Shown here in pieces: positions 700 to 52,700 of a stretch of DNA of 64,000 nt (position 1 is its first letter; every line of letters begins with the position of its first letter). The position numbers and the translations under genes were made by a program. Origin of the DNA: Amphiscolops sp. MND2022 (lineage: Eukaryota); NCBI GenBank assembly GCA_964187785.1, contig OZ076409.1:13828001-13892000 (forward strand). The letters run 5' to 3'. Below the pieces are notes generated by a model. That model did not search any database. It saw only the letters and a program-made list of their open reading frames with translations, and was not told where the DNA came from.

Positions 700-1081
700 T
701 GTTACGACTATTTACCGGGGTAATTTTACGAGTAGTCGCAGTGGTTTTATTTTTGATCGGTGTTGAAGTTGCATTTTCTGGAATGTTTTCGGATTCAGAA
801 TCTGTTTCCTCAGCGGCAGTTATGATGGTTTGCTTTTTAACAGTAGGAGCTATTGGTTTTAGCATCTCCTTTTGGTTTTCAGCTAAGATTTTAGTAAGAT
901 CAGACATGATCTCTTTTCTCAACGATGATTTGATTTCCTCTAGATTTTCAGTGAGTACTCTAGGAGATTTACTCGTTCCAGCTACTGGATTTGAATTTTG
1001 GCTAGCTTCAGGCAATGGAGTCTCAATTTCAGTAGAAACTAATTCTTCAACAGCTTTTCTCTTCTGGCTTCTAGTAGTCAT
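700..1081 (-). CDS. gag: Gag N-terminus encoded within the LTR (3' LTR copy; runs on into the flank to 638)
   Basis: ORF MTTRSQKRKAVEELV...TPVNSRN is open from ATG 1081 to the LTR end. The same frame in the 5' LTR (from 14527) leads toward the gag body. Confidence 0.65.
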
Positions 1082-2040
1082 TTTTGAGAGAGAGAAAGAG
1101 AGAGGTTATTCTTTGGAAAACTCGAATTCTTCAAAGAAAATATGGTTTTGAAACGAAGTATTAGCGTAGCAGGTTAAAAACAGATTAACAGATCTTACAT
1201 CTTCTCAGGTATATATACTTTCATAGCATCATTTGTTCCTCACCTAAAAATTCCTAGGAATCCTTAAAATCGGTTTTGTTCATCAAAATTGCTTAATCAT
1301 CCTTATTATTTCAACCCTTTGATTAATTGTTCACGATTTAAAATTCCTAGTCACGGCTCTCTTACGGAGTGCTTGTTGAAATCATTTTTGTTCATTACCA
1401 TTGTTTCCGGTTTGATCGCGGAAAAGGCGGCAAAATGGAAGCCTAGTTGAATTTTCATCGCGAAAAGCACGCCGGCGTGATCAATGATTCATTCTGAGAC
1501 TAGTAAAAATCACCTTGTTCACGGTAAAAGAATGACAAGCAAAATTGACTACGGAAATATCTCGGAGTGATTTTAGGTAAATGTGCTGTAAATATTTTGA
1601 AGGGAACAAATGATGCTGGAAAAAACGGTTAATACTGATCAAGAGCTGAGATGGCAAACAATATAGCACAGAATCATTTTAAGTTTCTGAACTAATTTTA
1701 CATGTATTGGAACAAAATGGTTTGATTAATACAGAACAATGGCTCATTTAGCCCAAGGAACATAACATATCAAACGTACAAAACATCTTTTTCAACATGA
1801 AGGAAAGCACCTTTCTTTCAATGATTTCCTTTGTTTTAACCTGTAGTACGATCGATTTTATTAGGTGTTAGACGGGAACAATTCGGGAGGGTATTATTTT
1901 AGTGTTATACTCTTTTAACATTCCTTTTTCGGTTTCGTATAGCATAAGGAATATTTTGATATGTTAGAACAATTTTGATCTTGTAGCGTTTCTTTTTAGT
2001 CGTTCTGTATGTATTAACATTAGGCATAATTTTGTCATTT

Positions 2041-2205
2041 TACAATTTGCTCCGTAAGCGCTCCGTACGTATTAAGATTAGGTATAGCTTCTTCGCATTA
2101 CAATTTGCTCCGTAAGCGCTCCGTACGTATTAAGATTAGGTATAGCTTCTTCGCATTACAATTTGCTCCGTAAGCGCTCCGTACGTATTAAGATTAGGTA
2201 TAGCT
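2041..2205. repeat. 58-bp tandem repeat (~2.8 copies) in LTR U3; second copy at 15489-15653
   Basis: Unit TACAATTTGCTCCGTAAGCGCTCCGTACGTATTAAGATTAGGTATAGCTTCTTCGCAT starts at 2041, 2099 and 2157. Confidence 0.95.
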
Positions 2206-2800
2206 GAGCGGCGTATGCTTGCGGAGGCAGAGCGGACAGCATTAACAAATTCACTCTTATTCTCTCGCACAATTGGCGTTGCTATGGTAACTAGGGATGG
2301 TGGAAGACGACGCTATTGGTCCGTAAAAATAGAAACATCTTACTCTTCAATCAAGCTGAATGACGCCGTCATTACGTTGTAAATATTCTCTTAAGTTGCT
2401 TAACTGCATACTTAAGTGGATATTCACAACTATTCAATCATTGGAAAACAATTCCGCTATTCTCTTTGTATGTTCTTTCATTTTAGATTGTATGAATTCC
2501 GTTGGGACCTCGGAATTGAATTTCATTTTGGTGTTTTCATTTCAGTGTGGAAAAGAAAAAAGGTCCCAAAGTTAAGAATGTTTTTAATTTGTTGTTTAGA
2601 TATGTATGGAATTTTCAGCTGACGAAACCGGAAGTAACGGAACGGTTACGCATGAAAACTTTATACCGGAAGTTTCGTTCTGTCTAAAATCACTTTCGGA
2701 TATTTTGCTTATCGCTTTCGTTAGACAAAAATCCTTTTGTTCTGATTATTAGCTCGTACTACAGTTAAACAAAGGTAAGTGAACAGTTAGGGTTTTTTAC

Positions 2801-3451
2801 CTAGTTTTGCGGGGTATTGCCATGTCCTCTGCCTTTTGCGAACTTCGGTATTCCTCCGCAACAGGAAAAATCCCGACCGGGAGCGGGTCGTGACAGGGCG
2901 CCTCTATAACTTGTTGACCACGGCCTGGGGCACTGTGGGATCTCTCTGGCAATTAGTACGGGCTGCTTTCGTGCTCTTTTGATTCTCGCACAGGTAAATG
3001 AATTCACTCTACCGGCGGTGCAGTAGTAGTCTTCTGTCAAAGACAGACCGTGAGTCTCTTCTATTTCTTTGATGGAAGGCTCGTCTAGATCATTTAACTT
3101 CTCAGTCTTTGACGGGGGAGCGTATTCCTTTTCGTTTGTGATGTCGGCGAGTATAGGGGCACGGGTCAGTTCGGGCATCTCTCGAGATGAGTCCGGTTCT
3201 TCGTAGTAGTCTTCCGAATTTTCTTTCTGGTGAGACTCGACGATGAAAGTTTCTTCCGCATCTGACTGGAAAGTCGATACTGATTCTTGGGTAGAATTAA
3301 GGTCCGCCTCGCTTCCTCGCCATACTTCTACAGAGGAATCACTCAAATTGAGTCTCCCCACCATGTTTAAGGGTAGGGTTTTGATTGGTGTACTATATCT
3401 GTGATTTTCTTCATCCGAAGAGATGTCAATGACAAGGGCATAGTTGTCCAT
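2801..3451 (-). CDS. Accessory ORF of the retrotransposon, 216-aa acidic, probably disordered protein of unknown function; stop lies inside the 3' LTR
   Basis: Uninterrupted ATG-initiated ORF preceded by AAAAA, rich in S/E/D, N-terminal VIDISSDEE motif. Confidence 0.65.
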   Translation of the reverse strand: MDNYALVIDISSDEENHRYSTPIKTLPLNMVGRLNLSDSSVEVWRGSEADLNSTQESVSTFQSDAEETFIVESHQKENSEDYYEEPDSSREMPELTRAPILADITNEKEYAPPSKTEKLNDLDEPSIKEIEETHGLSLTEDYYCTAGRVNSFTCARIKRARKQPVLIAREIPQCPRPWSTSYRGALSRPAPGRDFSCCGGIPKFAKGRGHGNTPQN

Positions 3452-3942
3452 TTTTCTTTCAGCGATTTTTGTCTAAGTCTTGAAGAATTAATTCTGGGTA
3501 GACTTTTCTTTACGTTTATTGTACGGCAAATGAAGAGGTCAATTTTTCTTTATTCATGTTTTTCCTGTATTCCCATTGGTTGATATTTTCATCTTATTTC
3601 AGTTTGTTTTATCTTCGGAAAGCGTTTCACTTCCATCTGCGCTGTGATTGGCTGAACCGAATAACTGAAGTTTCTAATTTTGAACTTCGCCATGACGTCA
3701 TCAATTTCTTTCCGGAGGGATATCGTTTGTGTGACGTCATGGCATGCAAAATATTTCCTCTTTCGTAGTATTTTTGCTTGATTTGACCAATTTGTAATTC
3801 GTTAAACTTCCGTTAACGTTTTCCTTAAGCTTAGACGTTTCTGAAAAATTCAGATTGCTTTTTTTCCTTTTGACTGTATCTTCCTAATTGTTCTTTTCTT
3901 GTTTTAGATCGTTTTGAAGATTTCTTCCGCTGCTTGCCCGCG
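3452..3942. promoter_or_regulatory. Candidate bidirectional internal promoter
   Basis: Spacer between divergent ATGs (3451 minus, 3943 plus). Perfect TGACGTCA at 3693-3700 and 3732-3739; ATTGG/CCAAT near 3576, 3647 and 3788. Confidence 0.55.
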
Positions 3943-6900
3943 ATGGAGAATGAAGGTAATCCCCCCATGTGCCTTCTGTTGGTTTCCTTAGTGGGAATGA
4001 AACAACATTTAATTACACCGATGACGATGTGCAATCGGAGACAGAATTTGTTCGTGCTAGGGCAGGTTGGTAAAATCTTTCTGACTTCCATGGGTAATTG
4101 GACTATCTTGTTTTTGGTGATCAGCCTTTTTGTAGTCTTACCCGTAACTCTGACGCGTCAAACCAGATCTTGATTTTCAGTACCTCAACCTGTCTCAACT
4201 TCAGCCGCTAATACTTGTGTCACTTCCGCGGCAGTAGTTGTTTCCAGTTCTTCCGTGTTGCCTCCGGTTTCAACCGTTCTGACTGTTCGTGCTTCTGTCA
4301 ATGATATGCTGACTGCCGCGCTTAGTGCGTCTGAATCTGGGCCTTCATCCGGGCTTTTCCTTTCGTGTTCCGCCGAAGATCCAGCGAGTGCCGGCGTTGA
4401 TCCTGATGAGAGGCAACCCCACGTCCCCGATCCTGTTCCTTCCCCTCCTGATGTTTCGGATAGTGAGTCTCAAGGAGGTGAGACTGATGCCCCCCTCATC
4501 CAGATTGCGAAGAAGGGTTTGTAATTTTGAATGACCAGACTAAGCTAGTTTGTGGTGTTATTTATAAATCTTGCTTGTTTTTTGTTGGCCAGGTGAACCG
4601 AGTGCTGCCCGTAGGACGTCGGTCAATTTTGCAACCCCGCCTAAACGTGCTAAAAGGATTGTTCCTCCGCCTCCACCGTTGACTCGTGCTCCTGGGTGGA
4701 TTAGTCAATGTTTTTCTTTGACGATAATCATTATCTTCTGTGTTTGATATTAGGGGGGTAATTGATGTTATTTTGTTCAGGTCAAGATGAGCCGGAGCCT
4801 CTGCTTCTCACTGGTGGTACTGCTCTCATTTCGCAGGATATAATGGAATTTGGGCGTCAGCTTGCAGGCTAGGTGGAGACTCGGCTTCAGACCGGTTGGT
4901 TCTTTCTTCTTTCTTTTTTTTTCTCTTGGTGGCAATACTTTGTTGCATATGGCGGTTTACTCAATGGTTGTTGGTGTATGTTCTAGGTCTTGACGATTTT
5001 GTTGAGAAGATGGCCTAAGGAGAAGGAATACAGCAGCCGCAATTACCTTCATCGACGGATGCTAAATCTCCATCCAGCGTTCCCCGATTTTATGTCGGGG
5101 CCTCGGAGTGGTAACGGCAAGTTTTTCTTCTGTCGCGTTTGTCGCCGAGATGTCGGTATGAAGGCTCACGGCTCCGGTGAATTTGCTCGTCACTTCCAGT
5201 CCGACAGTCACTGGTTCAAGGATGTGACTTATCGTGTACACATGAAGTTACCAGTGTTGAACAGGCTTATGGAGCCAATGGAGTTGTCTGCTAGTCAATT
5301 AGCGGAGTATCAATCGCGGCCTTTTGAAGATCTTAGTGAGGGATACCTGTTCCCTGAAGAGCTATTGCCGAAACACTCTCGGGTTGGTTCGAAAGTGCCT
5401 TTCATGACTTTGGTGGGCTGTCTGTGCGAGCTGTTACGTAGTGGAGGCGATTTCTTGTTGCTTCGTCGATTGTGGGGCCACTTTCTTGCGTCGTTGAGCG
5501 AGGAGCAGGGGCCGCAGTTTGCTTTAAATTGGAGTCGTTCCGAGACCGTGGTTAGTTTTTTATGTAGGGTTCTTTTTCTTTTCTAATTTTCTCTAACGTG
5601 TCCCCTCTTTCTTATTTGTAAGGTGTTTTCCTCAGAAATGCAAGTCCAGTGTTTTCAGAGGTAGTTTTGACTGTGCGTTTTTTTAGTCGTTTCTGTGCCG
5701 AGGTCTTGCTCCGCGGGTGTTGCGTTCTATGCTTAGCAGCATCATGAGTTTCCGGAGCTATGGCGTCCAATTTGAGAAGGAGTGTGGGGATGAGCGCTGC
5801 TACGTTGTGTATTGGGACGACAAGGATGTCAAGAAGATTTGTGTTGGCTGTGAAACTTTGGATCAGGCTGTACCCCTGCCGGAATTGTTGCCTTTGTCCA
5901 AAGTTGTTGGTAGTTTGAGCGCAAGCCAGTTGCCTATATCTATTCTCGGGGCTAGTCCGTCTTCGATCCGGGTGCTGGACGACAATCGCGCTGATGGACG
6001 TCGGTTTGTGGTGCATCAAACCTTTGATGAAGAGACGTTACTCCAGTGTGTGCTGCAGGCTGACAAAGATGTTTTCGGAATGGTCAGCATAGTAACTTTA
6101 GTGGAGTATTTAATTCATCGTCTCAAGAGTGCGTTGTACGAGGAGTGGACAGAGGATAAATTTGTTCTTCGTTAATGTGTACGTCAGGGCTCCGTGGACT
6201 TTGCTGATTACCGTCAATTTATATCCGACGTTATTGATCTGTGGCCAATAATACGACCTTTCGTTCGATGTACAGGCCATCCCGAAGCTAAGGAGAAAGC
6301 TGATACCGTTAGTTGTTTCTTCTTATTCGTCACGTGTGTCTTTCCTTCCCCTTCTCCCCCTCTTTTTTTGTCGCATTTCTATGCTTGTTGCTTTCCTCTG
6401 ATACAGTAGGTGTTTGTTTCTAGATGAAGGGGACAGACTGGCATATTATTGCGGACAATATGACGCCGTATCGTTTCGGTTTGTTGCGGCTAGTTCTCGA
6501 TACTTGTGAGTATATCATGCTGGATTGTTTTGTGTTGTGACTGTTCTCTTGTCTCCAACTGTTTGAGTACTGTTTTGTGTTTTTTTCTGTTGTTTCCAAG
6601 TGGTTTGCGTGATGGCTTTCTTGACTATTTCAATCTGTTTTAGTTCACGTCAATTGTGCCAAGTTGTTGCAGCGACGGAGCGACTACGGGTTCCACGGAT
6701 ATGGCGAACTGTGTGACCTCGTGTATTGTTTACTACTAAAGACGCGGCGCACTGAAAGGTTGCCTACTTTGAATGAGTGGGAGAAATTTATGGATGTAGA
6801 GAAGGTTGCTGAGTTCCCTCCGATCGCCATGGAGTCTTTTCTTGCTGGTTCTGATTATGGGCGTGAGTTACTGGCTGGAAAGACAAATGAGTTCTCTACG

Positions 6901-7857
6901 TTTCGCGTGCGATGTCGGGAGTTTCTTGGCCGACTGATTGTGGTGATTTTGGAGAGTCCCAGCGCATCATCCCGGGTGTCTCGCGGGTTATACAGTTTTT
7001 GTCCAGAGCTACTGTTAGAAGGTGACGGACAGTTAGTTTTCCGCCTATTTTCCGATCTTTGTCGGATCTTGGAGACTTGTGGGGCCCTATTGTCTGATGA
7101 ATCAAAAGCTGCAGTAAAGGAGTTCAGTAGTTACGTTGTGGAGAGGCGTTCTCATCACGAGGCATCTATGGGGGTGGCTAGTGAGATTCCTGACATCGTG
7201 AGTTGGCTGCTGCGCGATTTTGGTTTTCAAGCTCGTGTGCATGCTTGTCGAGTTTTGAAACTGTGTGTGTTGATTACGGGCAGGCCTCGTGAGAATTATC
7301 CTGTCGTAACTTTCGACGTAAGTGGGAGTAAATTATCTGTACAGAAGTTCCGCGAGTGTTTGCTCTTGGTACAGAGTTATGTGTTGAGCCCTGGGTATTC
7401 ACATAAATGCTTTTTTACTGATCCTACTATGGACGCTGTGGAAGAGGCAATCGCTGATGCTGGGGTGTTTTACGTGGCTCCGAACTTTGATCTGTGGACC
7501 GAATTTTGTAGTGGGATTGCCGAGGCGTTTGCGTCCCGATATCAGGGCCTATACGATGCCTTTTTACAGGGTCGCCGTCAGTCTTTCGAGTCTTGTTATT
7601 CTGATCTCAATAAGAGTAATCGTCTTGCCCGCGCATTGCAGGGTACGTCTGTGGCAGCAACGAGTGGTGGCAATGTTTCTGTGTCGGCAAAAGGGAAGGG
7701 CCCTAGTCAACGTGCTGGGTCTGCTGGGAAGTCAAGTTCTAGTAAAGAGGCTACTACGAGTTCCAGTCCCCAGAAGAAAAATAAGAAGAAGCCTAAGAAA
7801 GTAAAAGACAGCGCCGATGAGGATCCGGAAGTCTTTCATAAACTGAAGAAATTGTAG
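3943..7857 (+). pseudogene. Antisense 8-exon gene inside the LTR element: C2H2/BED-like zinc finger plus hAT-transposase-like body, ~1050 aa, with a few recent lesions
   Basis: Predicted exons 3943-4065, 4181-4516, 4593-4694, 4781-4894, 4987-5550, 5687-6307, 6424-6505, 6644-7857, joined in phase. Introns are 76-138 nt, T-rich, GT..AG (intron 3 donor reads GG). Lesions: frameshifts near 3961-3966 and 5014, stops at 4870 and 6173. Motif FFCRVCRRDV...GEFARHFQSDSH; Lys-rich C-terminal tail. Confidence 0.85.
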
Positions 7858-8038
7858 CACTCTGTGTTTGTGTGATTTATTCTGGTTATTGGCTTTTGCA
7901 GTTTTGTTGTTGATATATAGAGACTGCCTGAGAATCGTATTCTCTTTTTTATGTGTATTTTTGTAGTTTTAGTGTAATAAGGAGGAACCAAATTAACATA
8001 GCCATCTCGGTTCGGTTTGGGTCTCTGATCGTTTTTAT

Positions 8039-11000
8039 CTAATTTTGAGTTTGAGGATTCTCTTCCGTGATGATTGCGTCAAGTATCCTAAAGTTGGGGT
8101 GCGCGTTAGGTTTAGGATTAGGACGTAAGTTATATCTTCCTGTTTTTCTGGGATTGTATCCAAAAACTATAGGCGGCAGTGTAGGTGGTATTGGGGGGCT
8201 TTCTGTAGGCGGCGGGCTCATTGTGAAAGGGTTATCGCTGACGTCTAAGTTAAATGACGTATTATCTTCGGAGGATGTTTTATCTATCGTTGTACTCTCA
8301 TCTGCAGTTGTTATAACTGTTTCATGGTCCGTTGTATTTCCGTCTTCAGTTCGTATTTCCGTGATAGTAGCTTCTTCAGTGTTGTTTTCCGTTGGGGCTC
8401 CGAACAGAACTTCCCCGAATTCGGTTTCCCAAGCTTGCGCGTACCAATCATCATGGGTTGTTTTAACCTCAGGATCTGGAAGCTGATCTTCCACTTTGAC
8501 TGTTACGTCAGGTACTCGTTGATTGGGCGCGTATAGCCTTAGGCGAATTCTATGGAGGGTTTGCGTGTATCTTGTTCCCGTCCGTCTTACAACGTAATTG
8601 TTATTGGAAAGGACTTTGACCACTATGTATGGCCCTGTCCAAATGCAATCTTTGAAAGCGAATTTCATTGACTGGTTATCAGCCTTCGGATTCAGGTCGT
8701 AGCAATAGTCATTGATTTTCAATGGCGTTGCTGTCGCTTTTTTTATCGTAGTATCGTTTATACTTCAAATATGATTGCATGAGGTTGTCCTTGGCTGACT
8801 GGTGGATTTCGATGATTTGTTTTTGTAATTCATCCGTTAGGTCTTCGTTGGCGTCTTTCTTCCATTCTGGCTTGAGTCCCAGTTTGATGTCCAGAATGTT
8901 GTACGGGATGCGTCCGTGGAATACTGTTGTCGGTTCGCAGCCTAGGCTTTCGTTGTAGCTTGTGTTGTAGTTCATGAATGCAATTTGTACATATTTGTGC
9001 CACACTGAACGTCGTTCTCCCGTTGATATTTTTAAGGACGTTTTTAGTGATGCGTGCGTTCTCTCAAGTATTCCAATCGTTTGTGCATGTTTCGTTGTTG
9101 CGTGGCTAATTCGTATGTCAAGAGTTTGTGCTATCTGATTTACAACATCTGATCGGAATCGTGATCCTTTGTCAGTGAGGATTATTGTAGGCAGGTAACA
9201 ATGGCGTGTCATTACGTCGATTATGCATCGGCCTACTGTTCTGGCTGTCATATCTTGCGTAGGGTATGCGAATAGGTATCGAGAGAAAACATCCATCATT
9301 GTTATGATGTGCCTGTATCCGTTGGATGAAGACAGATTAGGCAGAATGTCGACTTCTAAGCAGTCCTCTGGGCCAAAGGTAAATTCTGTGTTGCTCAGTA
9401 TTTTTGGGCGTATTTGTCTTGTGTCGATCCGTTTGTTGGCTATGCAGTCAGGGCAGTTGGTTACCCAGGCTCTAATATTCCGTGCAAGTCCCGGGTAGTA
9501 GTATTTTGTTCGGCTTTCTTGGATCATTTTTGTTATTCCTGAATGTTTGTTGGTTTTTCCGTGCAGAGTTGATAGGAGTTCGGAGACTATGTGTTTTGGT
9601 ATGAGGATTTGATGATGCGTGATTGTGCCATTCTCTCCGTAGTATTTGCGCATGAGAACTCCATCTTTGACTATTATTCTCTCTTCGTGACGTAGCAAGT
9701 TTCTCCCTCTTGGTTCAGTTTTGAGGAGGTGTTTGTCATATTCTTCGTGGAGTAGACGTAGCTTTAGTGCTTTTAGGATTGGATCTGCATCATGTTCATT
9801 GCGTATTCGGGCGTTTTCTTTGATTGCTCCAAATGCGTAGACTGCGGTATTGAGCGGTATATGGACTACTTCTGTTATTTCAGTGGATAGGTTTTGTTGT
9901 TCTTTTTCGTCCACTGCTCGTTGTTTGCTGAGAGCTTTTCTCGCAAAAGTTTCTTGTTCTGATTCTTCTTCCTCGTCTGGTAGGAAAAAAGTTGTTCTTC
10001 GTCAGCAACATCTGTGGACTGTAGGTTGACTTCGATGGGTGCCGTTATAATGTCGTCTCGTAGCTTGAGCTGGACCCTTTCTTTGGGCGTTAGTTCCAGA
10101 CGAGAGAGAAAATCGACTGCTGTGTTTTGTGACCCGGCTACGTGCATAATGCGGAATTTGAATTGTAGAACGTAGTCACAAGCGTTCCAGAGCGCAGGTC
10201 GAGTTGTCTTTGTTTGGAAAAACCTTGTTACTGATATATTGTCCGTTAAGACTAGAGTTGGTAGTGTCGTTTCCCATAAGATGTGACTGTTTTCTAGGAA
10301 TGCATGGTAAATGACAAGGAACTCTTCGCAGTATATTGACATTTTCAGCTGTGACGGCGAGAATACGCGGGAGCCAAAAGCGACCGGAGCGAAAGTTTTC
10401 CGTTTGGAGAGTAGCTTTTTATCATCGTTTTCTTCTATCATTAGGGCATAGCCTGATGCCCGGAAGCTTGCGTCCGTCATTAGTACGTATCGTTTTCCCG
10501 CAACTGGTTGCCTGAGGGCTAGTCCACATGCTTCCGCTAGGCTTGCGTTGATGGCTTTGAAGTTGTCGACTAGTTCTTCTGATATGGTGATTTTGGCATC
10601 TGCTTTTAGGAGTTCATACATTCCGATCATCTTTTCAGACAGTCTCGGTATGTAGTTTCTGTAGTAATTGATAAATCCATTGTATTTCTGGACTTGTTTC
10701 TTTGATCGGGGAAATCTGATTTTTGACAAAAAATTGGTGATTTTGTGATCTTGCGGTGCTACTCCGTGGGGTGTGATGGTTCTTCCCAGGAATTCGATTT
10801 GGGTGACGCCAAAGTGGCATTTTTCAATTGGGAGTTTTAGTCCGGCTTTGCGGATGCATTTGAAGACTGCTCTGATGTTCTTGATGAGTTGTTCCGTTGT
10901 GTTGGCGGCAATCCCAATGTCGTCCACGTATTGGACACACTGGTCGGCTTTGATGACGGTGTCGAGGTATTCCCGCATGAAGCTCGAAAAGGCCGACAAG

Positions 11001-13252
11001 GCTCTACTAAGTCCTTGGGCTAGCCTGCGATAGGCAAACGTTCTACTAGCGAAGTTAAATGCAAGAAGTTCTACTGACCTTTGATCTGCCATTTGGAGGC
11101 AGTGATAGGCTTGTGAGCAGTCTAGTTTGCAGAACAGCTGTTTCCCTGCTAGGTGTTGTGCGGCGTCTGAGAGGGTGCTGATGGGGTGGTTGTTGTTTAT
11201 GTAGTCATCTGAGATGAGGGCATTGATCTTCCGTAAGTCCACTAGGAGCCTCAGTTTGCCGTTAGGTTTGCGTTGCGCGAAGATGGGGCTGGCATATTTC
11301 GAGAATGGGAGAGTTGTGATGATCCCATATTTGTGCATCAGTGCCAATTCTACTGTGAGGTCGTCCTTGAGGTTGATAGGTACGGGGAGACTTTGTGTAT
11401 ATACCGGTTTGTCGTTTTTGGGAGTTAGGCATACTTTGAACTGGTTGTTCATTCCGATATCCAGTCGGTGGCGTGCGAAGATGTCATTGAATTCGACTAG
11501 GGTGGACTCTAGGTTTTCACGGTCTTCCCCTGTTATTAGTGAATCCTTCCATTTGAATAGCTAAAGGAATTGTGTTCTGGATTTTTCATCTTGTTTGGGG
11601 TCCAGTTCTTCTAATCTTTGTAGCTCGCGTAGTTCTCGTAGAATGCGTTGTTGGATGGGCGTGTGTTCCGATTCATCTCCGGGATTTTCGGGAGTTGGGA
11701 ACCAGAACTTCTCTTCTGTTTGTTCTGCCGAATCAACTTGCATCAATGCATTAACATATGCAACATCATCGTCGTGTTCAGTGAGTAGATTGAGGGCTGC
11801 TATATCTACTGCTCGTATCAATTTCGTTTCTTCAGGTTTCAGTATTTGTATTTCTGCTAGTTTCGTATGTGGCGTTATTGTATAGGGGAAGTCCGTGGTG
11901 TTCGCTATTTTTATCGCGACTCGTTTGTCTCGGGTTGTTGTTATTGCTGGGGCTACTATGAGTTTTGCATTTTCATCGAACTGTGGTAAAGGTTGGACTG
12001 TCCCAGTTATTGGGTGGTCGTTACTTGTAGTGATGGAAGCCTGGATGATCCGCGTAGCTTGGGCTGGTATGGTGTGTTTTTCTTCCGTCTTGATAGTGAC
12101 GGGTTTGGAGTTGCACTTTTGTCTTTCGTCTTTTAGGGCTAGAGTGATTTGTATTTTAGGAAAGTCTATTGTTCCTTGTGCAGTATCTAGGATTGCGGAA
12201 TGTTTCCGGAGGAATGCCAGGCCAATGATTGGGTAAGATGTTTTGGTCATGATGATGAAAGTCTCTTCGAACGCGTAGTCACCGATTTTGAACTGCATTG
12301 TGTATGTCGCGCGGGCTTTTTCGAGTTCTGTGTTGGCATATTGTATCTTGAAAGGAGGTGGAGGTGCCTTCGCGATTATGGTTGCGTTGGCTTCAGTTTG
12401 TATCTTGTCTGCGTCTCTTTCACTGATGATGTTGATGTAGGCTCCTGAGTCGACTAATGCATCAATTCTAGTGTTTTCAAACTCGAGAGGAATAAAGAGC
12501 ATTCTTTTCTTCTTTTTGAGGGTAATTGCTGACATTAACGGAATGTAGTCGTCATCTTTATCATGTTGTATGAATTCTTTTATGATGTTGAGATCATATG
12601 GCAGTTGTTGTGGGCATTCCGTTATTTCGTCGTCTGCATGATTGTTGTCCTGAGTTGGCAATTCGGATGCTGTTGTTGGGGGTGATACTGTTTGATCGGC
12701 TACCCCACGTTGTTCTTTTGCTTGTTGTGTCCATATTGTCTTATCCTCGATGCATATGATATTCTCTGCATCTATTGGTGTGGGCGTAGTGGTGACGGGT
12801 ATTGGCGAGGACTGTGTTGTCTTTTTTAAGATTGGTGACGGTGGTGATGGTAAGGTTGTACTCTCGGTGCATTGGGCTTGAGGATTTGAAACTTGGATTT
12901 TGAAAGAGAGTTTGTTTGTGTCATAGATGGTTGGTTCGTCCCAGGGATCACATCTATAGTCTCTGTCATATATGTAAATGCGTTCGGTCATTGATTCTGG
13001 TAGAGGTTTTTTTAGTGTCGCGTAGTTATCGGGTGATTCTGTTATCCATTGGGGTAGTGGTGTTGAGTCCTCTGGATGTCGGGCATTATGTCTGAGTATC
13101 ATGCCTACGTTCCAACGACGTTGCCAGTCTTGGGTGGGTTCTTCATGGCATTCTGTGAGGAAGTCTTCTTCATACCTATTAGGGGGGTCTTCTATTGTGT
13201 AAGCCCTTGCGTCTACCGTTTCCCCGAAGCGGAGGCGCGGCGTCCTTAGTTT
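8039..13252 (-). pseudogene. pol: pol polyprotein (protease, RT, RNase H, integrase) with one stop and two frameshifts
   Basis: ALVDSGA protease; LRLLVDLRKIN, KLDCSQAY and YVDD in RT; TDAS in RNase H; H..H..CPDC and EVD/TDKG/LER in integrase; WTGPY C-terminal module. Lesions: TAG at 11561, frameshifts near 9985 and 8740. Confidence 0.95.
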
Positions 13253-13256
13253 TTTT
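13200..13256 (-). other. Putative -1 ribosomal frameshift site between gag and pol
   Basis: Minus strand reads A AAA AAC TAA followed by GC-rich CGCCGCGCCTCCGCTTCGGGGAAACGG. The -1 frame (KLRTPRLRFGETVDARAY...) is open into the 13102 ORF. Confidence 0.75.
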
Positions 13257-14527
13257 GCTAGATTTCAATAGAAGGGATTGGTTGTTTCGCTGATTTGGTT
13301 TGTGGGTATGGCGAACTCGTGTCGTTTCTTCCTAGGGTCATTCGCCGCGTTAGCTCCGTACCAGCAGTTCTCAGTTTTGTGGAGTTTTCCACAAGTGTCG
13401 CACTTTGGTTTGGGTGGTTCATTGGTATTGGGAATGCCGTTCTGTGCTTTAGTTTCGTAGTAGCGATCTTTTCGTAGTTTGCGGCATTGTGCTTTATAAT
13501 GTCCCTGTTTGCCGCAGTGGAAGCAGCTTCCTCGATGGGTGAGTTCCTTTTTTGGTTCCGGTGTGACGACGTCGACCGTATTGAGTGGTACTAGCGTGGT
13601 TTCGTCTGGGGTTCCTAGACCATTAAGGCGCATCTCTCGTTCGAGATGTAGGACAATGTCGTTATAAGGTTTGTCCTCGAGGTAGGCTCGGTTAAGAATC
13701 TTTTTGACGTGGTCCGGCATTTTGGCGTATATGGCCTTGTCTATGAATTTCTGTGCTTCTGAGCCGAATGCTTCTTTAGCCGTTTTTTGCAGGGTGTCCA
13801 AAAATTCATGTAACTTTTGCTTGGTTGGGTCAAAATGTAGCGAATCCCATTCGCATCTGGCTTTGGCCGAAGATTGAAAAGCTCCGAAGCGCCGTTTGAA
13901 CGCCGTAATAACCTCTTCTAAGTTATCTTTTTTGGCATCGTCTAAGTTGCAATATGCTTGTAGTGCATTGCCTCGTAGTAGAGTGGAAGTAGTTGATTTT
14001 TTGGATTTCTGTTAGGTGTGGGTACATTTTTATGTTGTTTTGAAATAAGTCCTCGAAAAATTCGAATTTTTCGGACTTACCATCAAACACAGGTAGAGAT
14101 GCGGTGAGGGCTTTCGGCATTGAAGGGGGTTGAGGTGGTGGATGGATTTCCGGCTGAGAGGCGAATAGTAGTCTTGATGTCGATGGTCGTTCGTTGGGTG
14201 GCAGGCTTTGTGGGCAGACTTTGTGGGAATGTTTTCGGATTCAGAATCTGTTTCCTCAGCGGCAGTTATGATGGTTTGCTTTTTAACAGTAGGAGCTATT
14301 GGTTTTAGCATCTCCTTTTGGTTTTCAGCTAAGATTTTAGTAAGATCAGACATGATCTCTTTTCTCAACGATGATTTGATTTCCTCTAGATTTTCAGTGA
14401 GTACTCTAGGAGATTTACTCGTTCCAGCTACTGGATTTGAATTTTGGCTAGCTTCAGGCAATGGAGTCTCAATTTCAGTAGAAACTAATTCTTCAACAGC
14501 TTTTCTCTTCTGGCTTCTAGTAGTCAA
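13246..14527 (-). pseudogene. gag: gag, disrupted by a deletion at 14226 and small frameshifts
   Basis: LPVFDGKSEKFEFFEDLF capsid-type start. Zinc knuckles CFHCGKQGHYKAQC and CDTCGKLHKTENC. The start codon is TTG here versus ATG in the 3' LTR. Confidence 0.9.
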
Positions 14528-16343
14528 TTTTGAGAGAAAGAAAGAGAGAGGTTATTCTTTGGAAAACTCGAATTCTTCAAAGAAAATATGGTTTTGAAAC
14601 GAAGTATTAGCGTAGCAGGTTAAAAACAGATTAACAGATCTTACATCTTCTCAGGTATATATACTTTCATAGCATCATTTGTTCCTCACTTAAAAATTCC
14701 TAGGAATCCTTAAAATCGGTTTTGTTCATCAAAATTGCTTAATCATCCTTATTATTTCAACCCTTTGATTAATTGTTCACGATTTAAAATTCCTAGTCAC
14801 GGCTCCCTTACGGAGTGCTTGTTGAAATCATTTTTGTTCATTTTACCATTGTTTCCGGTTTGATCGCGGAAAAGGCGGCAAAATGGAAGCCTAGTTGAAG
14901 TTTCATCGCGAAAAGCACGCCGGCGTGATCAATGATTCATTCTGAGACTAGTAAAAATCACCTTGTTCATGGTAAAAGAATGACAAGCAAAATTGACTTC
15001 GGAAATATCTCGGAGTGATTTTAGGTAAATGTGCTGTGAACATTTTGAAGGGAACAAATGATGCTGGAAAAAACGGTTAATACTGATCAAGAGCTGAGAT
15101 GGCAAACAATATAGCACAGAATCATTTTAAGTTTCTGAACTAATTTTACATGTATTGGAACAAAATGGTTTAATTAATACAGAACAATGGCTCATTTAGC
15201 CCAAGGAACATAACATATCAAATGTACAAAACATCTTTTTCAACATGAAGGAAAGCACCTTTCTTTCAATGATTTCCTTTGTTTTAACCTGTAGTACGAT
15301 CGATTTTATTAGGTGTTAGACGGGAACAATTCGGAAGGGTATTATTTTAGTGTTATACTCTTTGAACATTCCTTTTTCGGTTTCGTATAGCATAAGGAAT
15401 ATTTTGATATGTTAGAACAATTTTGATTTTGTAGCATTTCTTTTTTAGTCGTTCTGTATGTATTAACATTAGGCATAATTTGTCATTTTACAATTTGCTC
15501 CGTAAGCGCTCCGTACGTATTAAGATTAGGTATAGCTTCTTCGCATTACAATTTGCTCCGTAAGCGCTCCGTACGTATCAAGATTAGGTATAGCTTCTTC
15601 GAATTACAATTTGCTCTGTAAGCATTCCGTACGTATTAAGATTAGGTATAGCTGAGCGGCGTATGCTTGCGGAGACAGAGCGGACAGCATTAACAAATTC
15701 ACTCTTATTCTCTCGCACAATTGGCGTTGCTATGGTAACTAGGGATGGTGGAAGACGACGCTATTGGTCCGTAAAAATAGAAACATCTTACTCTTCAATC
15801 AAGCTGAGTGACGCCGTCATTACGTTGTAAATATTCTCTTAAGTTGCTTAACTGCATACTTAAGTGGATATTCACAACTATTCAATCATTGGAAAACAAT
15901 TCCGCCATTCTCTTTGTATGTTCTTTCATTTTAGATTGTATGAATTCCGTTGGGACCTCGGAATTGAATTTCATTTTGGTGTTTTCATTTTAGTGTGGAA
16001 AAGAAAAAAGGTCCCAAAGTTAAGAATGTTTTTAATTTGTTGTTTAGATATGTATGGATTTTTCAGCTGACGAAACCGGAAGTAACGGAACGGTTACGCA
16101 TGAAAACTTTATACCGGAAGTTTCGTTCTGTCTAAAATCACTTTCGGATATTTTGCTTATCGCTTTCGTTAGACTAAAATCCTTTTGTTCTGATTATTAG
16201 CTCGTACTACAGTTAAACAAAGGTAAGTGAACAGTTAGGGTTTTTTACCTAGTTTTGCGGGGTATTGCCATGTCCTCTGCCTTTTGCGAACTTCGGTATT
16301 CCTCCGCAACAGGAAAAATCCCGACCGGGAGCGGGTCGTGACA
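14226..16343 (-). repeat. 5' LTR, lacking its inner ~80 bp
   Basis: Identity to the 3' LTR stops at 14226 (equivalent to 780). The sequence equivalent to 700-779 and any PBS are absent. Confidence 0.92.
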
Positions 16344-48851: not shown

Positions 48852-49746
48852 TGTTGGCGCCAGTCAATTGCGAGATCAGAAACTCAAATTCGAACGTGAC
48901 TGATGAAACTTACAACTCAAAAGACTTAGAAAATTTATCAAGATTTTAGATGGAAAAATACAAGTCTAAGCAAAAATGACCCTATGTAATAAAACACCAC
49001 CCCCCCGTCCCGGTAAACCGCTCAATCAATCACCCTGAAACTTGGCACACATATAGTGGTGGTGCTTCCCTAACTTTTCACTCTTAACAAGCTACCCCGT
49101 ATCTCCCCTGGGTTCAGAGCTATTAACACCCAAAGAGACCTAGGTCGGACCCCATGAATTACCCAATTTTGATGTATCAATTATTATGTGATTCTCTCAT
49201 ATGACCTTGAAGGAAATTCATCTCTGTTGAAATTACTGATATTTACATTGTGTAAACATACTTTCTAACCCACCTGACCAACATGCCAAAACCACCTTAT
49301 AGTTTGTTTACTTAGCCAATAACTTCATTTTATGCTTTAAATGTCATTTATTTATACAACATATTTCAACTAATATTTGTTCTATATTTACTGTAGAATT
49401 GTAAACCACATGTATACCATTATGCGATAGAGATTTTAACGACTGAATAGCTGTAGTCAAGTTGGGTCTTAGGACCATTTCAATTCTCAATTCATTTCTT
49501 CACCTCTTTTCGACTTTTCGCCAAAGACTTAGGGCGACTAAGTTAGTTACTCTCAACTTGTGGAGAGTTGGACGTGTTAAGAGACAAGGAAGAAGTGCAA
49601 TTCGGGATCGTTGGATCCTACTAAGTCAAGATACAGTCCTTTTAATCTACGAAGCAAGCAGTGTTCGGTAACGATCCGCAGTGCCGAGCACCGAATTCAG
49701 GGCGGCGTAAAGTTTGGTCAATTGAAGGGATCAAGCAGCCGTTACA
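48852..49746 (+). repeat. BEL/Pao 5' LTR (895 bp)
   Basis: Differs from 53891-54786 by about 5 substitutions and 1 indel, counted by eye. Confidence 0.96.
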
Positions 49747-49764
49747 TTTGGTCCGCCGACCCAT

Positions 49765-52700
49765 TTGAGAGATGGTAAACATCCTTTGTGGAAATGCGAG
49801 AAGTTTCTGAAGATGACGTGTCAAGCGCGATACGAGAAAGTCAAAGAGCTGAAACTCTGCTTTTGTTGTTTGGCTGGGAAACACGTAGTGAAAGACTGCA
49901 CATACAAAGCATGTGGAGTCAAAGGTTGTAACAGGCGGCACCATCGACTGCTACACCGCGAGACAAATGAGCGGCAGAAAGGAAGCGGAACGGAAGACCC
50001 ACAACAGAAAGCGGAGGCGAACTCTGCATTTTGCTCATTAAAGAGCAGTGGAATTCTACCCATTATACCTGTCATCATCCAAATTGGGAAAAAGCAAGAA
50101 TCAACCTTGGCGTTGTGTGACTCTGGAGCAAGTCTATCGTTCATAGACAAGGAATTAGCTGACAAATTAAATGCTCACGGGGAAGAAGTTGATTTGAGTG
50201 TGGCTGGAATACATGGGACCAATGAAGTGAAATGTGAACGACTCACCGTGGGAATTCGTGGCAAGGCAAGGAGCGACACACACCACATGACGGTCTACAC
50301 GCACCCAAACATAGACGCCGGATCAAAGATCTACAACTATCGGGAGCTCAAGCATGCCTATCCTCATTTGTCGGTTTTAAGCGAAGAAACATTGAAACTC
50401 AAAGATGTAAAAATGATTTTGGGACAAAACTGCTATCCTATACACCGGCCTGAAGAATACAAAAGCGGTACAAATGGTGAGCCATGGGCAGTGAAAACGA
50501 AACTTGGATGGACCCTCTGTGGACCACTTCCACAACAGGAAGCTGTGCAGATGACGGCATCTTGCGTAACAGCTTCTGAAGACGATGCTCTGGCAGAACA
50601 GATAAAAACTTGGTGGGACATTGAATCCTATGCGTCTCGCTGCGATGTGTCTGGAAGGTCCAAGGAAGATGAGAAAGCCTTGCAGATGCTAGAACAAAAC
50701 ACAAAGTTTGACGGCGAAAGATACGAAGTCGGTCTTCTCTGGAAAAGAAATGACCCCTTCTTGCCGAACAATTACTCTTCTGCATTAAGCCAAATGAAAT
50801 CGTTGGAGTATAGACTTGAAAAGAAACCGGAGTTGAAGAAACTCTATCAAGAATCTATCAAAGTAGATGTTGAAAAGGGATTCGTTAGAGTTCTGAAGCA
50901 AGAAGAATTAGAAGTTACAAAATTGGAAAGACAGTGGTATGTTCCACATCACCCAGTAGAAAATCCAAACAAACCAGGAAAAGTGAGGCGAGTGTGCAAC
51001 GCTGCATCGAAATTCCGTGGAATTTCCTTGAACAATAACCTCTTAACAGGGCCGGACCTGCTGCAGAAACTGATTGGAATAATCTTCAGGTTTAGAGAAC
51101 AAAGGATCGCCATCACTGCTGACATTGAAGCGATGTTCCTACAAGTGAAAGTACCGCCGGAAGATTGTAAAGTGTTGAGATTTCTATGGAGAGACGATAC
51201 AAATGAACCCGTTAAGGTGTATGAGTATGGAAGACATATCTTCGGAGCCAAAAGTTCGCCAACTTGCGCCAATTATGCTCTGCAACAAGTTGCAAGAGAT
51301 AACGCACAGGAGTCCCCACAAATTACCAAACTGATAAGGCGAAACTTCTATATGGATGACTTTGTCAAGTCTGTTCCCAGCGCGGAGCAGGCCATTGAAA
51401 TCTACAACTTATTGAGAGCGATGTTGGCAAGGGGAGGCTTTCACTTAACAAAATGGATTACCAACTGCGAACAGACTATGATGTCTATTGACCAAGCAGA
51501 CAAATCACCGTCCTCTAGTAAAACATTTGAAGCTGAGCCAACTTCTCCATCCATCTTGGGACTGCAATGGAACGTTGACGCAGATAATCTGGAAGTCTGC
51601 AGAGGCATGCAGAAGGAGATACCGGTGAAGATAACGCAGAGAGCGGTGTTATCCCATGTTTCAGCTGTATTCGACCCTTTGGGAATAGTGTCTCCTTTCA
51701 CCATAAGAATGCGACTGCTACTGAAATCAATATGGAAGGAGAACGGACAGTCGTGGGATAAAGAACTGAATGAAGAAAACCTACATGAATTCAAGAAGTG
51801 GGCATCAGAGATGATACATGTGAACAAAATGGCCCTCAAAAGAACATACTTTGAGTCAGGTGTGAACAAAGTAGATCTACATATCTTCTCAGACGCTTCG
51901 TTGGAAGCAATGTGTATGGTTGCCTATTTGAGAAAGCAAGAAAATGGCGAAGTGGCCTTTGTGATTGGCAAATGTAGAGTAGCTCCAATACGAAACATGA
52001 CAGTGGCTAAGTTGGAGATGCAGGCAGCAGTTTTTGGAGTAAGACTGCGAGAGCTCATTTTGGAAGAACATGATATTGAAGTAGACCAAATTGTACATTG
52101 GACAGATTCAACGACGGCTCTACAATGGCTTCACGCAAGTAACAACAAACAACCGGTCTTTGTGGCAAACCGCGTTGCTGAAATTCTCGAAAATTCAACT
52201 ATCGATCAATGGCGGCATGTTGAAGGAAAACTGAATCCTGCTGACATTGGAACTCGAGGAATGACAGTGGAAGCCCTAAAGGAAAGTGAGTGGCTTACAG
52301 GGCCGGCGTGGCTCACCGAGACAGAAGACGCCTGGCCTAAGGCGCCTGAAAAGTTGCAATTTAGCATTCGAGAAGAGCTTGAACCAGTCATGGAAGCTGC
52401 CGTAATGGAACCAGCATTCGAATGGGAAAGATTTGGGTCTTTCAAGAAAATGATTCGAGTGCTGTCATACTGCCTTAGATGGAGGAAAAAGAAATCCGAA
52501 GGAATACTGACAGTTGAAGAACTCAATGCGGCAAGACTGGTAGTTTTGAAGCGTTGTCAGAAGGAAAGTTTTCATGATGCCTACGAGAAGATCTACAAAG
52601 GGCAGCCGTTGTCGGCTTCAGATCAATTGAATAAACTATCGCCGTTTCTGGACGAAAATGGGTTGCTACGACTACAAGGTCGACTGCAACATTCAAAGTC

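Follow-up and report, generated by a model that had tools for sequence, protein, structure and literature searches.

Accessory genes lying between pol and the 3′ LTR in antisense orientation have been described for plant Ty3/Gypsy elements of the Tat/Retand group, examples in the available text of two reports being gene23 of maize Grande and the antisense ORFs of rice RIRE2, Silene Retand and Phaseolus PvRetro13 (PMC7264820, PMC11963269). The gene described here, found in the genome of Amphiscolops sp. MND2022, has the same position, after pol and before the 3′ LTR, and the same antisense orientation, and it too is found in the majority of copies and in related families. Going by the available text, it also resembles the plant genes in the long stretch that separates pol from the 3′ LTR and in a suspected nuclear or DNA-binding role. 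However, the plant proteins are much smaller, whereas the protein here is predicted to have about 1,060 residues and its gene has seven conserved introns; the word "intron" has no occurrence in the available text of PMC7264820 and PMC11963269. Retand-type proteins possess a Transposase_28 or PMD domain while the protein here is without any Pfam family, and the host here is an animal instead of a plant. In maize Grande, the antisense gene reportedly has its own promoter.

Outside plants, Boty-like Ty3/Gypsy elements in Botrytis cinerea and Sclerotinia have the additional antisense gene brtn (citations in PMC8365987 and PMC7264820). As presented in the available text of these sources, brtn is likewise an antisense accessory gene of a Ty3/Gypsy element, but it belongs to another lineage and host kingdom and no similarity to the protein here was detected. 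The gene is said to have been described by Zhao et al. 2011 (Virology 417:248). Antisense genes are also present in deltaretroviruses, namely HBZ of HTLV-1 and APH-2 of HTLV-2 (available text of PMC11963269). Like the gene here, these are protein-coding, lie near the 3′ end of a retroelement on the strand that faces gag-pol, and have a nuclear regulatory role, which for the protein here is a guess. However, HBZ is small and transcribed from the 3′ LTR, whereas here a separate internal promoter is proposed and seven introns are present, and there is no sequence relation. HBZ also has a spliced form. In REM1 of Chlamydomonas reinhardtii, an integrase remnant is given as "truncated and in reverse frame" in the available text of PMC2774666. 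This too is a Ty3/Gypsy element with a reverse-oriented coding part near its 3′ end; however, what is reversed there is a GPY/F module derived from integrase, together with a chromodomain, whereas here the integrase is complete and in sense orientation and the reversed gene is unrelated. REM1 is reportedly described in Perez-Alegre et al. 2005.

The antisense gene is a large animal counterpart of these plant and fungal antisense accessory genes. Since Ty3/Gypsy elements of plants and fungi were already known to have antisense accessory genes at that position, the novelty of the layout is weakened; what is new is the large size and the animal host. In the literature searched, such genes were described only for plants and one fungus.

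The carrier element and the layout of its antisense gene

The window, meaning the whole stretch of 64,000 nt that was analysed (GCA_964187785.1, OZ076409.1:13,828,001-13,892,000, forward strand), contains a 15.6-kb Ty3/Gypsy element on its minus strand (780-16343). A BEL/Pao element is also present in the same 64-kb window. Blastn of both ends of the Ty3/Gypsy element placed the 3′ LTR at 780-2895 and the 5′ LTR at 14226-16343 (both minus strand), these being 98.58% identical over 2,119 positions, in agreement with the divergence of ~1-1.5% in an earlier note on this DNA. The LTR termini are TG..CC and the 3′ LTR has a ~58-bp tandem repeat around 2001-2205. In the window copy, the gag-pol region (8039-14011, minus strand; ORF list and Pfam) is split over five or more ORFs, with the pol stop at 8039-8041 (-). 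Its Pfam domains on the minus strand are gag/zf-CCHC, aspartic protease, RVT_1, RT_RNaseH, Integrase_H2C2, rve and Integrase_p58_C, so that gag, protease, RT, RNase H and integrase follow one another on a single strand. No target-site duplication was seen, the element flanks ...ACTAT and AGAAA... being different, and the TGG start of a tRNA-type primer binding site is absent right after the 5′ LTR. Both absences fit decay or exchange between copies and leave the family assignment by pol unaffected.

On the plus strand, an eight-exon gene (3943-7857) lies between the integrase end and the 3′ LTR, antisense to gag-pol; its exons were already placed between pol and the 3′ LTR in the earlier note, a position borne out by the ORF list and the LTR alignment. 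Exon 1 (3943-4065) has an ATG that is kept in 24/28 aligned copies, and in the window copy it has a window-specific 1-nt deletion after 3965. It is followed by intron 1 (4066-4180, GTTGGT..CAG); of the 26 aligned copies covering this intron, five have an altered GTTGGT donor or an altered AG acceptor. Exon 2 (4181-4516), which lies in the open frame 4174-4521, probably encodes a disordered Ser/Pro/acidic part of the protein and is followed by intron 2 (4517-4592), the donor of which is GTTTGT in the window and GTTAGT in many copies. Exon 3 (4593-4703) extends 9 nt beyond the end given previously. At 4695, the donor position first proposed for intron 3, most copies have GG or GA, and the true donor is found 9 nt downstream, a shift that is in frame; intron 3 is consequently corrected to 4704-4780, with the conserved G-T-[CT]-A-G-T beginning at 4704 in the alignment. 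Siblings have GTCAGT as this donor and distant sub-families have GTTAGT; in the window it is GTCAAT, which differs from that of the siblings at +5. For introns 1, 2, 4, 5, 6 and 7 the original coordinates stand, all with GT..AG ends.

Exon 4 (4781-4894) is 114 nt in 23/28 aligned copies, and intron 4 (4895-4986, GTTGGT..TAG) has a conserved donor and acceptor with a length of 76 to 137 nt. Exon 5 (4987-5550) is 584 nt in siblings and has a 20-nt deletion after 5010 in the window copy. It is followed by the phase 0 intron 5 (5551-5686), which has GT[TGA]AGT..TAG in all sub-families examined (GTTAGT donor in the window), and by exon 6 (5687-6307, 621 nt), with a premature stop at 6173-6175 in the window copy. 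Intron 6 (6308-6423), also of phase 0, has the donor GTTAGT and precedes exon 7 (6424-6505), which is 82 nt here and in 26/28 aligned copies. Intron 7 (6506-6643, phase 1) has conserved GTGAGT..TTTTAG ends, and exon 8 (6644-7857; alignment A1) is contained in the 410-codon ORF 6625-7857 and ends in its stop. Typical exon lengths in siblings are 124, 336, 111, 114, 584, 621, 82 and 1,214 nt, with a sum of 3,186 nt.

A shared donor GTT(A/G)GT had been noticed in several of the introns. This is true of introns 1 and 4 (GTTGGT) and 5 and 6 (GTTAGT) but not of introns 2 (GTTTGT) and 7 (GTGAGT), and the motif was rejected as a hallmark of the gene, distant sub-families having GTGAGT or GTAAGT at introns 5-7. 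The T at donor +3 may simply reflect the T-rich bias of the plus strand.

The window copy of the gene is dead. Its exons had been thought to join into a single open frame with about five lesions; three frame-breaking lesions (the deletions in exons 1 and 5 and the stop in exon 6) and one donor change (intron 3) were counted instead. The frame as previously joined has six internal stops, because the two deletions shift exons 2-4 out of frame, in addition to the stop at 6173-6175.

Next to the antisense gene is a sense accessory ORF, ORF3 (2804-3472, minus strand, 223 codons; ORF list and translation), which reaches from the internal region of the element into its 3′ LTR. Its product is acidic with a VIDISSDEE stretch and has no Pfam family. 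A search of the own genome with ORF3 gave 2,971 first-look candidates, of which 150 were scored, and at least 150 matches, most of them stop-free; 152 matches were reported, and identity was 51-100% among the 150 listed. Between the divergent ORF3 and antisense gene there is a ~470-bp gap (3473-3942) which looks like a putative internal promoter, possibly acting two ways. Within the gap are TGACGTCA (3693 and 3732), ATTGG (positions 3575 and 3647) and, at 3787, CCAAT, all conserved in aligned copies. There are just three occurrences of TGACGTCA in the 64-kb window, and it is found upstream of the gene in 6/6 loci of distant sub-families. At the other end of the gene, the plus strand has no canonical AATAAA or ATTAAA past the stop within 7801-8800. 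The idea that poly(A) signals are avoided where the sense RNA covers the gene was also considered and was rejected as not significant (0 AATAAA versus 2.2 expected, 57/500 simulations being as low).

A far-reaching and unlikely reading would make this 3′ end a small regulatory cassette, in which a single internal CRE/CCAAT promoter drives outward transcription both of ORF3, acidic and with a SUMO-interaction-like motif, and of the seven-intron antisense gene, the motif names being those that we assume for TGACGTCA and the CCAAT-type motifs of the gap. The 1,060-residue protein would here come from a gene resembling zinc-finger DNA transposases, of the ZBED5/FAM200/GTF2IRD2 type, and the modules (pol, antisense gene, ORF3 with LTR) would be shuffled between sub-families by recombination. 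If this were true, a protein of DNA-transposon origin would have been domesticated by the retrotransposon to further its own spread.

Conservation of the antisense gene among copies and sub-families

Judged from its sequence in many copies, the set of plus-strand exons at 3943-7857 is very probably a true accessory gene of an animal Ty3/Gypsy lineage. That it is heritable and antisense to gag-pol, as the earlier note had it, is supported by position, conserved exon structure, dN/dS and the indels of introns compared with exons. A search of the own genome with exon 6 gave 5,453 first-look candidates, of which 150 were scored, all at E < 1e-59, and the thousands of first-look candidates in the genome include groups of identical, apparently young copies. 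From several thousand such candidates, 34 loci were compared (L001-L036 minus two truncated).

The siblings keep the region: in 26/26 loci with sequence downstream of the gene, it directly abuts the end of integrase and lies on the opposite strand. One of 28 aligned copies has the intact spliced frame that was sought among siblings, fully open over 1,057 codons, and the remaining aligned copies have 1-66 stops in the spliced frame. The AT and GC skew is unbroken across pol and the antisense gene, which argues for long residence of the gene in the element.

Transduction of genes by LTR elements is documented (available text of PMC7264820 and PMC11963269). A host gene or gene fragment caught in reverse by an ancestral element could have been carried along as passive cargo, its introns kept and the element gaining no benefit, and a seven-intron gene is most likely cellular in origin; we nevertheless regard this history as quite unlikely. 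For such cargo drift would be expected, and the N-terminal exons are indeed fast-evolving, with dN/dS of 0.28-0.57 in exons 1-4 between sub-families. In exons 5-8, however, in-frame dN/dS between sub-families was 0.04-0.13 (0.04-0.07 in exon 5 where computable) versus 1.16-1.75 in the +1 and +2 frames over the same columns, with the proviso that pairwise values between decayed copies mix selection in the active lineage with neutral decay and that dS is saturated in several pairs. These in-frame values, well below the dN/dS of 1 against which purifying selection was to be judged, are also lower than those of the C-terminus of the integrase used as a control (0.19-0.60). Nor does passive carriage agree with the retention of splice sites, exon sizes and intron positions in sub-families down to ~55-65% protein identity. 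Exon 6 is exactly 621 nt and exon 7 82 nt in 6/6 loci of distant sub-families, and in five of these six the spliced exons 5-8 are open and end in the conserved C-terminal motif. The GT..AG ends are kept across sub-families, with the acceptor of intron 2 and the placement of intron 4 being uncertain in the most distant ones. A long annotated stand-alone homologue was likewise not seen among the best 150 of the 792 matches to an exon 8 profile, all of which are ≤443 residues.

The introns evolve faster than the exons, as had been anticipated, with ~10 times more indels per kb and, except in intron 1, higher substitution. When 16 siblings were compared with the window copy, the 759 nt of introns had 114 indel events versus 45 for the 3,033 nt of exons 2-8, 16 of the 45 being the 20-nt deletion of the window itself, counted once per sibling. 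Substitution rates were 0.022-0.075 in exons 2-8 and 0.056-0.114 in introns 2-7, with 0.032 in exon 1 and 0.014 in intron 1. Two database homologues, P0018 and P0029, have exon 7 fused to exon 8 with intron 7 absent, collinear with the predicted junction, and intron 7 is the only intron for which intronless relatives were found. In database ORFs that read into intron 6, conservation stops exactly at the donor, between ...ADT and VS....

The encoded protein

The protein predicted from the spliced frame has an N-terminus that is disordered, acidic and rich in Ser and Pro, then a zinc finger resembling the C2H2 or BED type, a conserved central part, a helical C-terminal part and a Lys-rich, NLS-like tail. 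The finger is a conserved zinc-finger-like motif C-x2-C...H-x5-H in exon 5 (alignment A3), with a mean column identity of 77% and invariant Cys and His residues. Exon 8 encodes an all-helical region and a Ser/Lys-rich tail with the conserved end DP.V.H.L.K, followed by the stop. Its profile found 792 representatives in public data at E <= 0.001, and a search with exon 6 found 51 further related ORFs there. A word-based search for longer proteins gave nothing usable, and no relative turned up in the metagenome contigs scanned. AlphaFold2 models were of low confidence for exon 8 (18 sequences, pLDDT 47.9) and exon 6 (30 sequences, pLDDT 53.0), and the protein-language-model look-up (Atlas) for exon 8 returned unrelated helical-repeat families, the best at 0.86. 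The protein is, as a best guess from these features, a candidate nuclear nucleic-acid- or chromatin-binding regulator.

The zinc finger also bears on whether the gene could be, or could have begun as, a mobile element in its own right that inserted into the Gypsy element, for example a DNA transposon with the encoded protein as its transposase of the hAT/ZBED5-FAM200-GTF2IRD2 kind, which we consider very unlikely. The Atlas look-up for exon 5 returned GTF2IRD2/FAM200B-like clusters (zf-C2H2_12, zf-BED, FAM200-ZBED5_RNase-like) at 0.89-0.91, but these rows share only 140-154 of 256 features, fewer than the 170 typical of true family members. The spacing of the exon 5 motif presumably resembles that of BED fingers; the zf-BED and zf-C2H2_12 profiles gave no match for seven exon 5 sequences at E <= 10. 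A three-stranded sheet opens the exon 6 model, in the manner of RNase H-like folds, although at low confidence, and Foldseek with this model gave no match at E <= 0.001. A likeness of the same model to the Hermes transposase (Foldseek rank 25th, E 1.0) was dismissed as no evidence.

Pfam gave no family for any exon or for the 55 family members scanned (A2 30, A1 18, A3 7), and neither Transposase_28 (PF04195) nor the plant mobile domain was found in the exons or these aligned members. DUF4371 and hAT families had no match among family members of exons 6 and 8; DUF4371 had 0 genome matches at 1e-10, as it did in the control genomes. PF18658 matches one place in the genome only, and the thousands of gene copies do not match it. 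Sequence profiles of the PDB gave no usable match to exons 5, 6 and 8, the only one being VMA22 at E 0.36. A nested transposon is further opposed by the identical position and orientation of the gene in every copy examined and by the lack of terminal inverted repeats, which the earlier note had also reported: no inverted repeat of >=14 nt is present within 2896-8100. Finally, the window copy taken alone is broken and without database annotation, yet a chance pattern or artefact of T-rich antisense sequence with no gene has next to no probability and is already refuted by the sibling with its open spliced frame, the frame-specific dN/dS and the open distant loci, as well as being at odds with the hundreds of related public ORFs found with exon 8 and the 51 more with exon 6.

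Intron retention and significance of the gene

For the accessory gene favoured here, transcription would start at the internal promoter in the ~470-bp gap by ORF3, and the plus-strand transcript would then be spliced at the seven predicted junctions. In the genomic RNA of an element, antisense introns are reverse complements that the spliceosome does not recognise, a logic also used by retrotransposition indicator cassettes. The seven introns would persist through each round of retrotransposition, as they face backwards in the genomic RNA and this RNA cannot splice reverse-complement introns. A gene of a transposon is selected by way of the spread of its element and, given the strong purifying selection, the protein would therefore help the element to multiply or persist.

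To our knowledge, little is understood about the accessory genes that LTR retrotransposons carry, and no function is known for antisense ones; a lineage in which such a gene is unusually large, strongly conserved and abundant is useful for their study. The gene is also a natural experiment, in which backward orientation alone keeps seven introns through countless cycles of reverse transcription. It encodes an unannotated protein family, pieces of which gene finders are likely to report as "hypothetical proteins". For transposable element annotation, spliced genes within retrotransposons are to be expected, and for gene annotation a share of the multi-exon "host genes" should be expected to be cargo of transposons.

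Carrier element and copies of the antisense gene

The antisense gene is carried by an LTR retrotransposon of 15,564 bp on the minus strand (window 780-16343). Its LTRs (780-2895 and 14226-16343, minus strand) align over 2,119 positions at 98.58% identity and show 26 mismatches and 3 gaps, which agrees with the divergence of ~1-1.5% given in the earlier note. Both contain a tandem repeat of ~58 bp (2001-2205 and 15450-15653), which shows up as offset self-matches when the LTRs are compared. The order of Pfam domains on the minus strand is that of Ty3/Gypsy elements, namely Retrotrans_gag and zf-CCHC, aspartic protease, RVT_1, RT_RNaseH, Integrase_H2C2, rve and Integrase_p58_C, and the gag-pol of this copy is broken into at least five ORFs. 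Neither a target-site duplication nor a TGG-type primer binding site was found at 780-16343. The pol stop is located at 8039-8041 (minus strand), and the antisense gene (3943-7857, plus strand) sits between it and the 3′ LTR. The window also has a BEL/Pao element at 49726-53942 (plus strand) with Pao peptidase and DUF5641 domains; its pol, an open frame of 1,165 codons, encodes RVT_1, Peptidase_A17 and integrase, a DUF5641 ORF comes next, and the element looks young. BEL/Pao elements are not known outside animals, and the host is accordingly taken to be an animal.

A search of the organism's own genome (1.07 Gb) with 4987-7857 gave 44 matches, from which 30 loci (L001-L030) were taken; 28 were aligned, the truncated loci L024 and L026 being excluded. 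Together with six further loci sampled from the distant sub-families, 36 loci were examined among several thousand first-look candidates. The gene was proposed in the earlier note to be a heritable accessory gene of the element, and this is supported by all 26 loci that reach downstream, in which integrase lies directly past the stop of the antisense gene on the opposite strand. A protein search with exon 6 yielded 5,453 first-look candidates; the 150 that were scored all had E < 1e-59 with identities of 54-100%, and most were stop-free. Groups with the same score are present among these and point to young copies. For instance, 13 places share one identical score, 57% identity and an open frame of 257 codons, and comparable groups occur in other sub-families, a pattern as expected from very recent bursts of elements with the antisense gene.

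Exon-intron structure and selection

As had been described, the plus strand does hold the ORF fragments of 3943-7857 in the interval from pol to the 3′ LTR, but in the window copy they do not join in phase, the 3,156 joined nucleotides containing six internal stops. In comparison with 16 close siblings, this copy alone lacks 1 nt after 3965 in exon 1 and 20 nt after 5010 in exon 5, because of which exons 2-4 are off the frame originally proposed; it also has a stop codon at 6173-6175. The usual lengths of exons 1-8 in the siblings are 124, 336, 111, 114, 584, 621, 82, and 1,214 nt. Six of the seven introns stand as first placed. The donor of intron 3, however, is not at 4695, where most copies have GA, but nine bases downstream at 4704, a shift in frame; it reads GTCAGT in the siblings, GTTAGT in the distant sub-families and GTCAAT in the window. 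The donor GTT(A/G)GT is indeed frequent in the window's sub-family (GTTGGT, GTTAGT), which may be due to the T-rich bias of the strand, but introns 5-7 of the distant sub-families use GTGAGT or GTAAGT, and this donor is thus not a hallmark of the gene. Directly upstream of the ATG, the pyrimidine-rich ...TTCTTGTTTTAG (3896-3908) resembles a splice acceptor, and there may be an additional intron in the 5′ untranslated region.

The GT and AG of the introns are retained among copies with 66-77% DNA identity, with the intron 2 acceptor and the position of intron 4 being ambiguous in the most distant sub-families. Between the 16 siblings and the window, 114 indel events were counted in 759 nt of introns and 45 in 3,033 nt of exons 2-8, 16 of these 45 being the window's own 20-nt deletion, scored once per sibling. 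Substitution differences amount to 0.056-0.114 for introns 2-7 and 0.022-0.075 for exons 2-8. The faster evolution of introns anticipated in the earlier note is therefore seen in indels and in the substitutions of introns 2-7, but not in intron 1 (0.014).

Nei-Gojobori dN/dS was calculated between an intact-length sibling, used as codon reference, and six distant copies. Values were below 1, as had been predicted, being 0.04-0.13 for exons 5, 6 and 7-8 where dS was unsaturated (it was saturated in several comparisons) and 0.28-0.57 for exons 1-4. The identical columns read in frames +1/+2 as a control gave 1.16-1.75, and the integrase C-terminus, as positive control, gave 0.19-0.60. An intact spliced ORF was found in one of the 28 aligned copies, whose frame of 1,057 codons begins with the conserved ATG and is entirely open as far as the conserved stop; the remainder have 1 to 66 stops each. 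In the six distant loci, exons 6 and 7 are always 621 and 82 nt, and introns 5, 6, and 7 are always in phases 0, 0, and 1, respectively. Exons 5-8, when spliced, are open in five of these loci and terminate in a conserved DP.V.H.L.K motif, while the sixth has a stop within exon 7.

Homologs were also identified among public proteins of ORF type, with 41 matches similar to exon 8. Two of these, P0018 (a cluster of 95 sequences) and P0029, have exon 7 joined to exon 8 without an intron and are collinear with the window's predicted intron 7 junction, at which ...LVLDTF meets HVNCAK.... In exon 6 homologs that run into intron 6, conservation ends exactly after ...ADT, being followed by VS (the GT donor) and then by unrelated hydrophobic residues. 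Position, splice sites, indels, selection, open frames, distant sub-families and public homologs combined make it very unlikely that the antisense gene is a chance pattern or a passive pseudogene.

The predicted protein

The predicted product has ~1,060 residues. Exons 1-4 form an acidic, Ser/Pro-rich and fast-evolving N-terminal quarter. Exon 5 is highly conserved and possesses a C-x2-C-x16-H-x5-H motif, in which the cysteines and the final histidine do not vary among seven sequences; exon 6 is conserved and exon 8 helical. The tail is rich in Ser and Lys and includes the stretch KKNKKKPKK, which resembles a nuclear localisation signal. Pfam gave no match with any exon or with 55 aligned family members, nor did PDB sequence profiles. 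An exon 8 profile matched 792 proteins (E ≤ 0.001) among 1.84 billion representatives; the best 150 of these are all unnamed, do not exceed 443 residues and look like ORF calls from single exons. AlphaFold2 yielded poor models (pLDDT 47.9 and 53.0), and Foldseek found no match at E ≤ 0.001. A language-model look-up with exon 5 returned GTF2IRD2 and FAM200B-like clusters at 0.89-0.91, with 140-154 of 256 features in common, which is below the level typical of true members. These clusters, whose proteins derive from hAT transposases and combine zf-C2H2_12/zf-BED with an RNase-like core, are the sole lead as to family. PF18658 matches one place in the genome, and thus the thousands of antisense gene copies do not match it.

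ORF3, upstream signals and residence in the element

Divergent from the antisense gene, in a head-to-head arrangement, is ORF3 (2804-3472, minus strand), a strongly acidic frame of 223 codons that is in the sense of gag-pol and reaches into the 3′ LTR through the polypurine-tract region. The frame begins with MDNYALVIDISSDEE, which we take to be a SUMO-interaction-like stretch, and belongs to no Pfam family. Its own-genome search gave 2,971 first-look candidates, 150 of which were scored; among the 150 listed of 152 matches, identity is 51-100% and most are stop-free. Window 2804-8764 was compared with loci L002, L003, L025, L029, and L031. Siblings with a 97%-identical antisense gene have an ORF3 just 57-58% identical to that of the window, and ORF3 reaches 92% identity in one locus whose antisense gene matches at just ~57-65%. 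In L025 and L029, the integrase C-terminus is near that of the window (dS 0.21-0.35) and dS of the antisense gene is saturated. The element is in this respect a mosaic, which suggests frequent exchange of modules between sub-families.

The gap of 470 bp between the antisense ATG and ORF3 has several motifs, namely two TGACGTCA palindromes (3693 and 3732), ATTGG (3575 and 3647) and CCAAT (3787), presumably CRE/ATF-like and NF-Y-like sites. The 64-kb window has just three occurrences of TGACGTCA. That at 3732 is retained, like the GATTGGCT box at 3647, in most aligned copies, distant ones included, and TGACGTCA is found at a comparable upstream distance in all six further loci. These motifs suggest a putative internal promoter. 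No AATAAA or ATTAAA is present downstream of the antisense stop within 7801-8800.

Additional ORFs in antisense, placed from pol to the 3′ LTR, have been described in plant Ty3/Gypsy elements, examples being Grande gene23, RIRE2, Retand (TRP28 domain), and PvRetro13, and in the fungal element Boty with gene brtn (PMC7264820, PMC11963269, PMC4408406, PMC8365987). The word "intron" is absent from PMC7264820 and PMC11963269, and no animal case or intron-bearing antisense gene in LTR elements was found in the limited full-text literature searched. The Amphiscolops gene shares the place and orientation of the plant and fungal ORFs but differs from them in its host kingdom, in its unrelated and much larger protein and in its seven conserved introns.

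The genomic RNA of the element would be a minus-strand transcript, in which these introns would be present as their reverse complements (CT...AC). Such introns are not recognised by the spliceosome, which is the basis of intron-interrupted retrotransposition reporters, and they would therefore be copied into each new insertion. The plus strand has an AT skew of about -0.2 to -0.35 and a GC skew of +0.1 to +0.2, both continuous across pol and the antisense gene, which has therefore acquired the strand composition of the element. This shared composition argues for the gene having been long resident in the element.
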